49,638 nt of DNA from a virus (lineage: Duplodnaviria > Heunggongvirae > Uroviricota > Caudoviricetes). Below the pieces are notes generated by a model. That model did not search any database. It saw only the letters and a program-made list of their open reading frames with translations, and was not told where the DNA came from. This document shows, one piece after another, positions 21,345-28,854 of the stretch. Position 1 is the stretch's first letter. Every line of letters begins with the position of its first letter. The stretch is taken from IMG/VR virus record IMGVR_UViG_3300016476_000987. One strand, given 5' to 3'. The translations under genes were made by a program, and so were the position numbers.

Positions 21345-21372
21345 ACCGCTTTATTTTGAAGGTTAACAATAG

Positions 21373-21443
21373 CGATCAGAGTGGGAATCGAACCCACACT
21401 TTCTCCCATATAGAGAGACGGCCTACCATTAGCCGATCTGATC
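21373..21443 (-). tRNA. tRNA or tRNA-like gene with atypical anticodon loop (CU-AUA-UG), identity undetermined
   Basis: GATCAGA/TCTGATC acceptor; GGCT-AATGGTA-GGCC; TCTCT-CTATATG-GGAGA; GTGGG-TTCGATT-CCCAC; G73. Confidence 0.7.
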
Positions 21444-21702: not shown

Positions 21703-21888
21703 TTAATCTTCGTTGGCACATTCCTCACAGACCTGTTTTATCACAGATTTGTTTGAGGAATAGATATTAATCCTTGGGTCCCCAAAGCTGTCATCGACCC
21801 TACGTCCGCACTTATCACAAGAGCAGACCATTTTCTTTTTAGGCTCAGGGATCTCGATTTTCCCGATAACCTTGATAGGCTGTGCCAT
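21703..21888 (-). CDS. small Zn-finger protein
   Basis: CSCDKC...CEEC. Confidence 0.7.
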   Translation of the reverse strand: MAQPIKVIGKIEIPEPKKKMVCSCDKCGRRVDDSFGDPRINIYSSNKSVIKQVCEECANED

Positions 21889-21930
21889 AGTTTTAATCCT
21901 TGTTATGGTGGATGATAGAATACAATAGAA

Positions 21931-22048: not shown

Positions 22049-22540
22049 TTACTTATAGTACTGGGGGAACTCCTTTGAAGGAGTCAGTTCTACGCTGGCT
22101 GGAACTTCGTTCCAGAACCAGAATTCTGATGACTGGTTCGGGTACTCCCACACGGAGTTGTACCCGATGTTGATGATGGAGTCGTAATAACGACCCCGGT
22201 TTTCATACAGCCTATGCCGTATGTTATAAAGATACCGGCGGCGCACCAGCCCCCACAATAATCCCCTCCTCTGCAAGGGAGTAAGTTTGGGGACTACATA
22301 ATCCAAAATCTCCTGTATCAACAGGATTTCCTTTCTCACTTCGGCATGTCTTTCTGCCTTTTCAGAAGGCAAATGGTTCCTTGACCACTCTCTGTAGTCC
22401 TCCACATACTTCTCGTATGCGAAGTCTACGATTTCCTCTACTGTCGGGATAGAAGCAGCGAATACATCGCTCTTCCTTCCTGTGAATTCAAAGTTTACCC
22501 AAGAAGGGATTACGCTGGTAGAGGCCATTACATTTTTCAT
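22049..22540 (-). CDS. hypothetical protein
   Basis: ORF track, 163 aa. Confidence 0.7.
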   Translation of the reverse strand: MKNVMASTSVIPSWVNFEFTGRKSDVFAASIPTVEEIVDFAYEKYVEDYREWSRNHLPSEKAERHAEVRKEILLIQEILDYVVPKLTPLQRRGLLWGLVRRRYLYNIRHRLYENRGRYYDSIINIGYNSVWEYPNQSSEFWFWNEVPASVELTPSKEFPQYYK

Positions 22541-22647
22541 AACAAGTGATTGATAGTTTTACGTCCGTGTGAGTTTAATAATTAGACAACTTCGAGGCAC
22601 ACAGACTTAACCTCGTAGTCATCCTGTTAATCCTTGTTATGGTGGAG

Positions 22648-22711
22648 TGATCATTGTAGGCATCGAACCTACCAAGAGAGATAAACTCCCTTGTTCCACA
22701 ATTAATGATCA
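22648..22711 (-). ncRNA. tRNA-like element (8-bp acceptor plus T-arm; reduced D and anticodon arms)
   Basis: TGATCATT/AATGATCA; GTAGG-TTCGATG-CCTAC; CAAGGGAG-TTTAT-CTCTCTTG hairpin. Confidence 0.6.
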
Positions 22712-22717
22712 TTATAG

Positions 22718-22756
22718 AAAAAAGCCCCCGAGATATTAATAATAATCCCAGGGGCT
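22718..22756 (-). terminator. intrinsic terminator
   Basis: AGCCCCTGGGAT...ATCTCGGGGGCT-TTTTT. Confidence 0.75.
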
Positions 22757-22765
22757 ATAGAGATA

Positions 22766-23185
22766 TTAAGGCCAGTAGGAGGTTACTTCCTTTTCAGGAA
22801 ACAAAGCCTGTAACTTTTGCTTCAGGCTCTCTACTGCTTCCGCTGCCCCATTAGGGTAACGGACGATCAGATTTATCTCCGAAGAGGTAAAGATTACATC
22901 CATTGAGGCAGGAAAACTATCCGTGAACACTACAATGTTGTAGCATTGTCCGCTCAGACGGCGGGTTACTATTTCCTGCGCAAACTCCTCTCTACAGAGT
23001 TCCTCCGCCTGAATAAGACGGGGATCTGCTTCTTTCATGGAGCGAATCGTTTTTACCATGGCTGAAAATGCTTCTGAAAAAGTTCTCATAACAAAAGGTT
23101 TTTGATGGTTTTTACCTGTGAAATAATTAGTTAAGACAACTCGGAGGCACACAGGCAATACCTCTTTGCTGCCATTAAGAAACAA
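22766..23185 (-). CDS. hypothetical protein (start uncertain, possibly MRTFSEA)
   Basis: ORF track; the N-terminal part overlaps the repeated leader block. Confidence 0.6.
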   Translation of the reverse strand: MFLNGSKEVLPVCLRVVLTNYFTGKNHQKPFVMRTFSEAFSAMVKTIRSMKEADPRLIQAEELCREEFAQEIVTRRLSGQCYNIVVFTDSFPASMDVIFTSSEINLIVRYPNGAAEAVESLKQKLQALFPEKEVTSYWP

Positions 23186-23250
23186 ATATCCTTAATCCTT
23201 GTTATGGTGGAGAAAATACTGACTAACGTGCTACCCATTATAGATAGCAT

Positions 23251-23280
23251 AAAAAACCCCCACTGTATAGACAATGAGGG
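23251..23280 (-). terminator. intrinsic terminator
   Basis: CCCTCAT-TGT-CTAT-ACA-GTGGGGG-TTTTT. Confidence 0.75.
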
Positions 23281-23293
23281 AAGAAGATATAAA

Positions 23294-23309
23294 TGTTCCA
23301 CGTGAAACA
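23294..23309. promoter_or_regulatory. parS: parS centromere-like site 1 (TGTTCCACGTGAAACA)
   Basis: Exact match to the chromosomal parS consensus TGTTNCACGTGAAACA. Confidence 0.85.
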
Positions 23310-23451
23310 TATAACGTGTGGAAGTATTATTGCAAGGTGAGTCATTAGAGGTAGGGAGGTACCTGCTAAAAACCACCATACAACATTATTTTCACGACAC
23401 AAAACTTATTTTTTCACACCCAATCGCTTGAATGTGAATAAGTTATGCGAA

Positions 23452-23467
23452 CGTTCCACGTGGAACA
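23452..23467. promoter_or_regulatory. parS: parS site 2 (CGTTCCACGTGGAACA)
   Basis: 16-bp parS palindrome variant. Confidence 0.8.
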
Positions 23468-23477
23468 TTTTATCAAG

Positions 23478-23541
23478 GAGACGCTCCCGGAATCGAACCG
23501 GGACGGATTTTACTCCGTGGGAGACCCGCTCCCAACGCCTC
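23478..23541 (-). ncRNA. tRNA-like perfect four-helix junction
   Basis: GAGGCGTT/AGCGTCTC; GGGAG-CGGGT-CTCCC; ACGGA-GTAAAA-TCCGT; CCCGG-TTCGATT-CCGGG, with no linker nucleotides. Confidence 0.65.
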
Positions 23542-23559
23542 TTAGTCGTATAGAGATTT

Positions 23560-24295
23560 TCTTTTTTTCCCATATGCGAAGGCACTACGACATACCTAAC
23601 GCATTGCGTCTATTACTTGCCCAAGGACAGCGGACGCTACGCACCATAGAGATGGCACTAATAGAGTGTCAATTCACTCGGACCCGCTTCTCGGTAATTT
23701 TAAGGTAAACCTTCAACTCCCAAATTACCAAACACGTGAAGGGAGTTTTGTACTTGCCACAGAACATACAAGACCCAGTACTCCGAAGAGACAGATCAAG
23801 CAGACAGCCTGTGGGTACACAGGTGGGCTTCCGATGCTTTGAAGACACTACTTACCTATTTGCACTTTTCTGTTTATTAAGCCTATGCCATCACGCACTA
23901 GCGTTTACGCAGTACTCATGCAGACAGATAGAGTTTTACGTTCTCTGACCCACGGGGCTCATCACAAGCCTTTGTACCCGAGTGTGGATAGTGGGCGGAG
24001 TGCTTCGACTCTTCTACGCATCTGATATGTCAGCCTTATATTTTATACCTCATACGTGCCTCCCTTTCGGTCGTTGCTCTACGGGCATCGCAGGGTTACA
24101 GATGAACGCATTCGCATCTGTTATCCGTCATTGACGGTTACAGTCCCAAGGCTTACAAGGGGACTGCCGACTTGATACACACATCACATGTGTACGCTAT
24201 CGGATTAATAAGTAGGCAGGTGCATTACTCATGGGGGGTATGAATGTTCCACGTGGAACACTCAGGGACTAAGCCTTGCTAGTGTCTGCCTAAAA
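23560..24295 (-). ncRNA. candidate large structured ncRNA (~700 nt), boundaries approximate
   Basis: No credible CDS; visibly GC-richer; many hairpins with cUUCGg and GAAA loops on the minus strand; long-range complementary blocks. Confidence 0.45.
24245..24260. promoter_or_regulatory. parS: parS site 3 (TGTTCCACGTGGAACA, perfect palindrome)
   Basis: Read directly. Confidence 0.85.
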
Positions 24296-24359
24296 AGATC
24301 TGTTAGTGTCCTCCCTTGCCATCGAAGGTACCGGCCATCACACCGGAGGGAGGGAAGGA

Positions 24360-24560
24360 TCACTTCCCGAAAAAGTCTTTGTGCTCCTCGAAAAAGTCTT
24401 TGTTCGCTTCCCGAAATCTTTTGATACCCTCTTGGAGTTTTACCTCCTCCTCCTCCATCATTTCCTTATCCCTCTCCCACACCCCCGTGGCTTTAGGGTA
24501 AAAAGCGAGGAGTAGTCCGATTTCTAATAACCATTCGTGCTCCTTTTTCAGATCCTTCAT
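24360..24560 (-). CDS. hypothetical charged protein
   Basis: ORF track; leader AAAACAAAGGTT-ATG. Confidence 0.7.
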   Translation of the reverse strand: MKDLKKEHEWLLEIGLLLAFYPKATGVWERDKEMMEEEEVKLQEGIKRFREANKDFFEEHKDFFGK

Positions 24561-24659
24561 AACCTTTGTTTTATTTGATGAGTCCCCACATCGGCATCGA
24601 AGCCCACGACTATTTCATCGTGTGGGGGGATATATTGGTTGGCGTTCATGTCAGGTTGG

Positions 24660-25229
24660 TTACGCTTTCAGGGCTTTCTTAGCCTTGTTCTCCAACTTGC
24701 GGATTTCCTTATAGGACTCCATCAGTTGGAGTTCCTTATCAGACCATACCCGCTGAACGGAGTCACGCTTCCGGAGATTAGTCAAGAACGTGGCTTTCTT
24801 TATCATCTCAATGGACAGGGCAGAAATATCTGCGTCGTCCAATTTGGTAGTCTTGTCGCCGTACAGGTTACATTCTTTACCCCACTGCTGAGTGAGGGAA
24901 GAATCCATGGCAGACAGGGTAGCACAAATCACGGTTGCTTCTTTCGGGAAAAAACTATCCCACTCCCACGGTTTACACTTCAGCATCTTTTCAGACACTT
25001 TGAAGCCGTTGATACGGAAGGCAATCTTACCCTTAAACTGAGACAAGTCAACCGAGCGAAGGTAGGACAGAAGAAAGTTGACTGCCTGTCCGAGGCTTTT
25101 AGGCTCGACCATAACAGGATTTCCTTCCTTGTCAATTTTTACGCCATGCGTCAATTCACCTTCGATGGCGGACACTTTCACACTTGCATCAGTGCACTCG
25201 ATACGATACTTAAGGACGATCTTTGTCAT
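24660..25229 (-). CDS. hypothetical Lys-rich protein (start MTKIVLK); first gene of the leftward array
   Basis: ORF track 24660-25331; ATG at 25229 has an A-rich leader and leaves parS site 4 upstream. Confidence 0.7.
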   Translation of the reverse strand: MTKIVLKYRIECTDASVKVSAIEGELTHGVKIDKEGNPVMVEPKSLGQAVNFLLSYLRSVDLSQFKGKIAFRINGFKVSEKMLKCKPWEWDSFFPKEATVICATLSAMDSSLTQQWGKECNLYGDKTTKLDDADISALSIEMIKKATFLTNLRKRDSVQRVWSDKELQLMESYKEIRKLENKAKKALKA

Positions 25230-25259: not shown

Positions 25260-25275
25260 CGTTCCACGTGGAACA
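25260..25275. promoter_or_regulatory. parS: parS site 4 (CGTTCCACGTGGAACA), followed by a degenerate copy at 25276-25291
   Basis: Read directly. Confidence 0.8.
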
Positions 25276-25404
25276 TTTTTAACGTGAAACGGAAACGGGC
25301 GGATGAAAAAATGCCCAAACATGAACGCCATACCAATATATCAAAGACCCTTGGTAGGGATACCTGCCCGCGTCACCGGCTGATATTCATTCCCTCCAAC
25401 ACTA

Positions 25405-28293: not shown

Positions 28294-28854
28294 CTAAGAA
28301 TTTAATAATAAATCTCTATATTTAGCATAGAATTTCTCTAAAAGTAGATCTTTTAGATGAAAAAAGGACTTTTCTTTGTGTAAATAAGGAGCATCTTTGA
28401 CAATATGAGCTATTCTGTCTACCGGATCAACCTCTATCAATCCAGCATAAGAAGGAATCATTGAAGTAGATAGGAGATTTTTTGGAGTAGCATAAAAGAA
28501 TTTATTAGGCCTTTTATGATTTTCTGTACAGTCTACAGCTTCTAAAAGCTGATGTTTGTCTTTTTTATTAAAATCGTCTTTAAAATCTCCTCTGGAAACT
28601 TTAATCTCAAACTCAAAAGCGTAGTCTAACTCAGTGATTGTGAAGAAGTCACTTTCCCACTCATAGACAAATGAGTTATTCAGCTGATATTTATGACTAA
28701 AGAATTTTAATCGTAGGGATTCTACTATGTCATGAGAAGTTAATTCTTCTGTTTTTGCTGCTGAGATATTTTTTATAGACTTTTTCTTCTTATGACCTGG
28801 CTTTACTATATCTGATTTTTCCAGGGAACTAAAGTCTATTAACGAAAACGACAT
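28294..28854 (-). CDS. MmcB-like PD-(D/E)xK nuclease-fold protein
   Basis: ESDFF...EFEIKVSRGDFKDDF.K...PNKFFYATP...IPSYAGLIEV. Confidence 0.75.
   Translation of the reverse strand: MSFSLIDFSSLEKSDIVKPGHKKKKSIKNISAAKTEELTSHDIVESLRLKFFSHKYQLNNSFVYEWESDFFTITELDYAFEFEIKVSRGDFKDDFNKKDKHQLLEAVDCTENHKRPNKFFYATPKNLLSTSMIPSYAGLIEVDPVDRIAHIVKDAPYLHKEKSFFHLKDLLLEKFYAKYRDLLLNS

Follow-up and report, generated by a model that had tools for sequence, protein, structure and literature searches.

Two families of large ornate RNAs known from phages, GOLLD and ROOL, are frequently found close to tRNAs and assemble into nanocages made of RNA alone, the function of which is unknown, and GOLLD combines a conserved 3' region with a variable 5' region (bioRxiv 10.1101/2024.12.08.627333). 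The candidate RNA described here is located on a 49,638-nucleotide stretch of DNA from a virus of the class Caudoviricetes (IMG/VR record IMGVR_UViG_3300016476_000987), which is referred to as the window. It resembles GOLLD (RF01998) in being large (many GOLLD RNAs exceed 800 nt), ornate and encoded by a phage or prophage, with tRNAs often beside it; however, its conserved motifs are different, a non-decoding tRNA mimic is found on its 3' side and parS sites bracket the locus. ROOL (RF03087), for which no protein partner or function is known, is likewise a large phage or prophage RNA, with multiple pseudoknots and a location near tRNA islands, but its architecture differs and no Rfam match connects it to the window. 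The hosts of ROOL are mostly Firmicutes of the rumen and gut, and those of the window phage probably differ. A third precedent is the Cellulophaga phage phi14:2, with a host of the Flavobacteriia, which produces abundant early long non-coding RNAs of undetermined function that are intergenic, run in the direction of the early genes, exceed the levels of most genes and persist late (Drobysheva et al., bioRxiv 10.1101/2020.03.07.982082). In contrast to the window phage, phi14:2 is crAss-like, and its RNAs come without a described structure or family. The likeness to the GOLLD, ROOL and phi14:2 RNAs is one of functional analogy only. With regard to maturation, the stable RNAs of the T4 tRNA cluster (species 1 and 2, or RNA C and D; around 120-140 nt) and the eukaryotic MALAT1/mascRNA are co-transcribed with a tRNA or tRNA-like element, and their ends are cut by RNase P or RNase Z. 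These RNAs have no sequence relation to that of the window, and serve here as the analogy from which its processing is proposed.

The interval from 23560 to 24295 had been singled out in an earlier note, made from the window alone, as holding no credible coding sequence and as being richer in G+C than its surroundings, and both observations stand. The longest ORF touching the interval encodes 87 aa and runs antisense to every neighbouring gene, with an overlap into the tRNA-like element, and neither this nor any other short ORF of the interval belongs to a Pfam or PHROG family. No convincing frame emerges in it when TGA, TAG or TAA is recoded, and across the seven homologous blocks introduced below the longest stop-free stretch in any frame is 72-111 aa. 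Mismatches between the window and its closest relative, L001, are distributed over the three codon phases as 11/17/13 (p=0.5), i.e., without codon periodicity, and the five indels between them (1, 1, 1, 1 and 2 nt) each break the frame. A protein-coding gene, including one with recoded stops, was therefore rejected on the basis of the missing conserved open frame, the flat mismatch phase and the indels that are not multiples of three. The G+C content of the block is 0.47-0.51, compared with 0.36-0.43 in nearby coding DNA and 0.36 in the whole window, which places it 10-15 points above the phage; in each of the seven lineages the block lies 5-18 points above its own locus, and in five of them 11-14 points above. 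A blastn search of 23400-24400 against 50,697 phage records returned no match.

From the start of the window to about 28.9 kb every gene is on the minus strand, and in this direction the locus consists of a parS site (25260-25275), a gene that we name X, a 66-aa ORF, a G+C-rich stem-loop, a second parS (24245-24260), the ORF-free block, the tRNA-like element (23541-23477), two further parS sites (23452-23467 and 23294-23309) and an intrinsic terminator (23280-23257). Gene X (24660-25229, minus strand) encodes 189 aa from the Met at 25229. The mechanically called ORF starts at 25331 and runs through the parS, and the alignment of the relatives puts the start at 25229 (MTKIVLKY...), some 30 nt downstream of parS 25260-25275, an arrangement that recurs in L037. 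X precedes the RNA block in six of the seven lineages; in the available sequence of L010, the upstream edge of which runs into N, no X is found. Its products form a fast-evolving family of about 190 aa with 15-24% identity between lineages, a weak but significant similarity, and belong to no Pfam or PHROG family. Closer homologs of X (P0120-P0123), at 54-89% identity, are encoded on contigs of 2-5.5 kb from Logan/ENA. The AF2 model of X (pLDDT 85) consists of beta sheets in the N-terminal part and long helices in the C-terminal part, and has no fold match in the PDB. The 66-aa ORF just upstream of the RNA contains a 21-nt tandem duplication (24363-24404; 86% identical). Directly after this ORF lies the G+C-rich stem-loop (24309-24353, minus strand), which, as read from the sequence, could perhaps be either the initial helix of the RNA or a terminator for the ORF; a comparable 8-bp stem occurs in L010 directly before the first shared motif.

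Four chromosomal-type parS palindromes thus fall within 2 kb (at 23294, 23452, 24245 and 25260), compared with an expectation of 0.09. The one at 24245-24260, a perfect 16-mer that occupies the same relative place in L001, is located at the 5' edge of the interval delimited earlier and may lie either inside the transcript or just upstream of it. The 5' boundary of 24295 given in the earlier note takes in this parS, and the first motif shared with a distant relative starts at 24208. On the other side of the block, parS 23452-23467 is found 10 nt downstream of the tRNA-like element and parS 23294-23309 just upstream of the terminator. A parS follows the tRNA-like element directly in the window, L037 and L043 and lies 0.1-0.3 kb further on elsewhere, and in L044 a terminator is located between the position of the tRNA-like element and the parS. 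A pair of parS sites about 125-160 nt apart and then a terminator is found in the window (~160 nt), L010 (~125 nt) and L037, while in L042 a single parS and a terminator come after the block. The terminator of the window (23257-23280, minus strand; a 10-bp stem and a T run) is the sole terminator-like site on the sense strand between 25000 and 22500 and is likely to be where the primary transcript stops. In L010, L037 and L042 the parS sites are followed by homologous terminators, and none was identified after the block in L043. A promoter scan of the region, which does not cover Bacteroidota or phage promoters, identified none. Elsewhere in the early region, a 27-nt stretch is present in three copies that are 85-100% alike (21886-21912, 22620-22646 and 23185-23211), the last of which is placed directly upstream of a minus-strand gene start. 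ARAGORN also calls a tRNA-Tyr with the unusual anticodon AUA at 21372-21443 (minus strand).

Relatives of the locus were fetched by using as anchors a 518-aa structural protein, an SNase-like nuclease and a 186-aa protein. The last of these (28294-28854, minus strand) is 55-93% conserved in the relatives and 33-41% identical to proteins annotated as 'MmcB-like DNA repair protein' in records of crAss-like and Bacteroides phages. Seven lineages were obtained, namely the window, L001, L010, L037, L042, L043 and L044, and all seven contain an ORF-free block at the same place, the upstream gene and the tRNA-like element lying 0.9-1.1 kb apart. The IMG/VR contig L001 shows 82% identity to the window over 23835-23477. 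A profile built from these two sequences recovers a divergent copy in the 2.4-kb gene-free gap of L010 (nhmmer E=2.7e-10), and in L037, L042, L043 and L044 the corresponding place is devoid of ORFs over 0.9-1.1 kb. The proteins flanking the block are 15-40% identical between lineages, and the genes that flank it directly differ between the window and L010. Over the whole block, identity among the seven lineages is 45-56%, which is the level of optimally aligned random sequence (66% between the window and L001). Since whole blocks are random-like, X is only 15-24% identical and flanking genes have been exchanged, the non-coding features that are retained point to selection. The blocks share 53 10-mers versus 4-14 in shuffles; around 35 of the 53 correspond to parS or T-loop words, and the remainder belong to colinear motifs of the RNA.

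The flanking 399-aa and 223-aa proteins have no relatives in IMG/VR, and exact and gapped DNA patterns of the RNA retrieved from IMG/VR and the JGI metagenomes only the L001 contig and its copy L036; six other metagenome matches were discarded as coding or as G+C-rich chance matches. The core pattern found nothing in the GTDB genomes, in which the combination of a T arm followed by a parS returned five unrelated bacterial loci, all without the core, and the SNase-anchored contigs P0011 and P0013-P0015 belong to other types of phage and lack the RNA. L034, a metagenome contig of 1.4 kb that is rich in G+C, matches at 1171-1228 the core pattern together with five further bases of the motif on the CGCUG side, a match that is probably due to chance (nhmmer E=1). 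Three related contigs from ENA and Logan (L013, L039 and L040) end 1-3 kb past the SNase-like gene, just before the expected module of X, RNA and parS, and in L010 and L042 runs of N adjoin the RNA. Such contig ends and N runs may reflect an assembly break at a hypervariable or repeat-rich spot.

The best-defined part of the RNA is a conserved 3' domain (23602-23837, minus strand), supported by the high identity to L001, the profile match in L010 and covariation. It is closed by a covarying helix between ATCGG at ~23836-23832 and CCGA at ~23682-23677, which encloses around 160 nt comprising the hairpins 23832-23792, 23792-23772 (with a UUCG tetraloop) and 23771-23748, the pseudoknot stems S1 and S2 and the start of an invariant motif; an insert domain and the core hairpin are located 3' of this closing helix. 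The alignment of the window, L001 and L010 contains 47 pairs in eight helices, pseudoknot included, the structure having been written from the same three sequences. In it 90.8% of the cells are paired, versus 81.3 +/- 2.1% when partners are shuffled (reached in 0 of 500 shuffles) and 35-47% when they are slid by 1-3 columns, a share that is inflated because the structure derives from the sequences on which it is scored. The sounder measure is the number of pairs in which both partners have changed, 13 versus 4.7 +/- 1.8 in shuffles (again 0/500) and 1-3 in slid alignments. The same pair table (window, L001 and L010) holds 15 G-U cells but only 3 A-C cells, and therefore the minus strand of the window is the one that folds and is the sense strand, in agreement with the gene orientation and the terminator.

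Within this domain, an H-type pseudoknot (23693-23746, minus strand) is formed by S1 (23746-23741 with 23721-23716), in which a C-G pair is replaced by U-A in L010, and S2 (23729-23722 with 23700-23693). Because MAFFT failed to align the 3' strands of S2, its register was set by hand, which is feasible in all seven lineages owing to the position of S2 directly 5' of the 3' strand of S1. With this hand-set register, 52 of the 56 S2 cells pair, versus 35.1 +/- 5.7 when partners are permuted (12/10000); five of the eight positions covary, and position 4 occurs with four pair types. The pseudoknot is followed by a universal core (23606-23689, minus strand) that consists of the motif AAGCGGGUNCG (23689-23679), a lineage-specific insert of 0-43 nt (23678-23638 in the window) and a hairpin (23637-23606) in which a 5-bp outer and a 3-bp inner helix surround the conserved internal-loop strands CGCUG and UAAU. 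In total 19 columns of the core are invariant in seven lineages that are otherwise at random-level similarity, and two further motifs are colinear with it, GA(A/G)CGUAAA near 23945-23933 and GUAnUGGGUC at 23781-23772. The hairpin pairs in 87.5% of its cells over the seven lineages versus 74.8% in shuffles (1/500), with double changes in five of its eight pairs (3/500); to fit L010 it needs a register shift. When the core hairpin is searched for with a covariance model, each of the seven phages gives one match (36-56 bits), a single copy in the window included, and on both strands of 470 kb the next match has E=0.59. The MAFFT alignment of the 3' part that bears the insert was wrong and was kept out of the counts. 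We claim no AGCGG/CCGCU helix around the core insert, since this pairing shows either no change or a mismatch in L001 and L010.

The 5' domain (23933-24208, minus strand) is considerably more variable. It comprises a helix (24203-24199 with 24171-24167) around hairpin A, and the hairpins B (24166-24141), C (24137-24125) and D (24120-24099), which were obtained by folding the window and L010 independently: both yield the same layout of a helix and four hairpins between shared anchors, although the two do not share the stem sequences of A, B and D. This domain rests on the independent folds without a formal count because MAFFT misaligned the window and L010. Motif islands at 24075-24046, 24033-24022, 24011-23998 and 23945-23933 (minus strand) are colinear, variously with L001, L010 and L043, and a further island shared in this half is located at 24208-24200. 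Hairpins with an AUUAAGU loop, which contains the palindrome UUAA, recur once or twice per RNA on unrelated stems (L042 16349-16363; L043 14739-14751 and 14924-14936; L044 18615-18627), and hairpin B of the window carries a longer variant of this loop. An A-rich linker (23542-23601, minus strand), which has low identity and a 15-nt indel relative to L001, connects the core to the tRNA-like element.

The minus-strand hairpins and the two tetraloops listed in the earlier note are all present, and three of its four named hairpins are supported by the comparison of relatives: CAGTCCC/GGGACTG shows covariation, CCGTCA/TGACGG is conserved, and in L010 an unrelated stem takes the place of the ACACAT stem. 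The long-range pairings fared differently. The 9-bp complement between 24270-24278 and 24147-24155, which had been taken as a pseudoknot or switch, is what chance provides, since a 736-nt sequence holds a mean of 0.86 perfect 9-nt complements and at least one in 47% of shuffles, and neither this pairing nor that of AGGCAGACA with TGTCTGCTT is kept in L001 or in the available, 5'-truncated part of L010. Because one 9-nt complement is the chance expectation, the two pairings do not constitute evidence. The idea of a pseudoknot nevertheless survives, with a different pairing from the one proposed, in S1/S2 at 23746-23693. Single-sequence folding of the block is uninformative and not above chance (MFE z -1.66 on the minus and -1.69 on the plus strand for 23560-24295), and it is the conservation and covariation across seven lineages that bear out the notion of a large structured non-coding RNA on the minus strand. 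On these grounds the block very probably is a structured RNA element under selection. That it is instead decayed coding sequence or a functionless spacer, alike in the relatives by recent descent only, is effectively excluded and hardly credible, for although the whole-region MFE is not significant and the scans of IMG/VR and JGI yield few relatives, invariant motifs, covarying helices and a consistent G+C enrichment persist next to proteins that are only 15-40% identical or have been exchanged.

The tRNA-like element (23477-23541, minus strand) consists of a stem resembling that of an acceptor, two short arms and a T arm, the loop of which is canonical. In the window, L001, L037 and L043 its fold is a compact four-way junction; in L044 only the T-arm hairpin is clear, and hairpins resembling a T arm occur close to the 3' end in L010 and L042. 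It is the best-conserved part in the comparison with L001, with an invariant run of 35 nt. Neither ARAGORN nor the Rfam tRNA model calls it as a tRNA, and a canonical tRNA at 23541-23477 was rejected in view of the 6-nt loop of the anticodon-like arm and the missing variable loop. No tmRNA was detected either, by ARAGORN in the window, L001, L005, L006, L010 and L013 or by Rfam, and a tmRNA was rejected because the tRNA-like element closes on itself locally. We propose that the element is the 3' processing signal of the RNA.

Membership in a described family was searched for with Rfam 15, which at the gathering score reports nothing on this stretch and only two ordinary tRNAs elsewhere in the window. 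GOLLD (RF01998) and ROOL (RF03087) have no gathering-score match in any of the seven lineages (the window, L001, L010, L037, L042, L043 and L044), and no match at E<=10 with permissive filters in window 22500-25000 or L043 14400-15620. OLE, RNase P RNA, group I and II introns, 6S, SRP and the other Rfam 15 families were rejected for lack of a covariance-model match; mir-2954 (on the tRNA-like element), NsiR1 and anti-hemB produced spurious matches with E values of 3.5-7.8, far below gathering. In the literature searched, no description of this RNA family was found. Between the two options originally offered, a GOLLD- or ROOL-like RNA or a new class, the negative search for every known family leaves the latter, and we read the element as a new family of large ornate phage RNA that appears to be absent from Rfam 15. 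This reading is based on seven lineages, three of which enter the largest formal test. The proposed family is defined by AAGCGGGUNCG followed by the core hairpin and preceded by S1/S2, within an ORF-free block of 0.9-1.1 kb downstream of X and upstream of parS and a terminator; in most lineages a tRNA-like or T-arm-like element is also found on the 3' side of the block. The window shows all of these features, i.e., AAGCGGGUNCG, the CGCUG/UAAU core hairpin, S1/S2, the block, X, parS, the terminator and the tRNA-like element.

In the model that we propose, transcription would proceed from right to left together with the neighbouring early genes and end at the terminator 23280-23257. The host RNase P and RNase Z would then recognise the tRNA-like element at 23541-23477 and separate the body of the RNA from a parS-bearing 3' tail, so that the 3' end of the RNA would be made at ~23542. 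The resulting RNA of about 0.65 kb, extending on the minus strand from ~24208, an uncertain 5' end, to ~23555, would combine a variable multi-hairpin 5' domain with the conserved 3' domain of closing helix, H-type pseudoknot and invariant internal-loop core. We expect that it would act as a stable particle rather than as a messenger, e.g., by serving as a scaffold or decoy or by assembling into multimers as GOLLD and ROOL do; any specific scaffold or decoy role is speculative. The hairpin loops with the UUAA palindrome are only a lead toward the assembly of a homo-oligomer. A large modular structured non-coding RNA of an uncatalogued family, with transcription and processing as outlined, is probably the best explanation of the locus; that it is one discrete large RNA matured at the tRNA-like element comes close to an even chance.

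The main alternative is that a single early transcript is cut into a string of small RNAs, each with its own fold, instead of yielding one large RNA, which we consider unlikely, although less so than the others. The hairpin modules with the recurring loops AUUAAGU and UCGAAGCG would suit such a string, as would the order of two of these modules, which differs between lineages and counts against a single RNA, as does a weak terminator-like hairpin just before the tRNA-like element of L043. However, no internal sense-strand terminators exist in the window or L037, the covarying long-range helix ties some 160 nt of the 3' domain into one unit, and the 5' and 3' domains occur together and in the same order in all seven lineages.

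A cis-acting role is less likely than such a string. The block could belong to the message of X, or to that of the small ORF upstream, as a long structured 3' UTR, or it could be a cis leader such as a stability element, an attenuator or a riboswitch-like sensor, and it does start directly after the stop codon of X in L037, L043 and L044, with no recognisable promoter in between; moreover, the copy of the 27-nt repeat upstream of the start of the next gene follows the terminator. Nevertheless, this terminator and two parS sites separate the block from the next gene, the 66-aa ORF intervenes between X and the block in the window, and a length of 0.7-1.1 kb is, to our knowledge, far beyond that of bacterial cis-regulators. 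We therefore regard a cis UTR as improbable. A function at the level of DNA, also less likely than the string of small RNAs, appears marginally more improbable still. In this case the locus would be a parS/ParB partition or origin module, the hairpins being cruciforms, protein sites or the primer-transcript region of an origin, as the four chromosomal-type parS within 2 kb, one of them inside the interval first delimited, and the conserved order of RNA block, parS, parS and terminator might suggest. However, compensatory changes with many G-U pairs and a 15:3 strand asymmetry would be needless for sites in a DNA duplex, the topology of the pseudoknot is conserved, the block contains no iterons or direct repeats, and the blocks of L037, L042, L043 and L044, which have a reduced core insert, hold no parS. 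A combination of the preferred RNA with partition, in which the RNA would be part of a phage-borne centromere-like module (parS, X, RNA, parS, parS), e.g., as a particle that self-assembles through the palindromic AUUAAGU-type loops in the way of GOLLD and ROOL, arises within a ParB-loaded zone and together with X organises, protects or segregates the genome in a carrier or pseudolysogenic state, is a long shot.

Large ornate RNAs of the GOLLD, ROOL and OLE type are rare, and even with cryo-EM structures at hand their functions are an open problem. If the RNA of the window represents, as we read it, one more and unrelated family, carried by large freshwater phages, it would be an independent case for comparison. 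Its fixed partnership with X and parS would give handles that GOLLD and ROOL lack, namely the protein X, the host ParB and RNase P. In such phages, ORF-free gaps may themselves be genes, and would be worth annotating as such.
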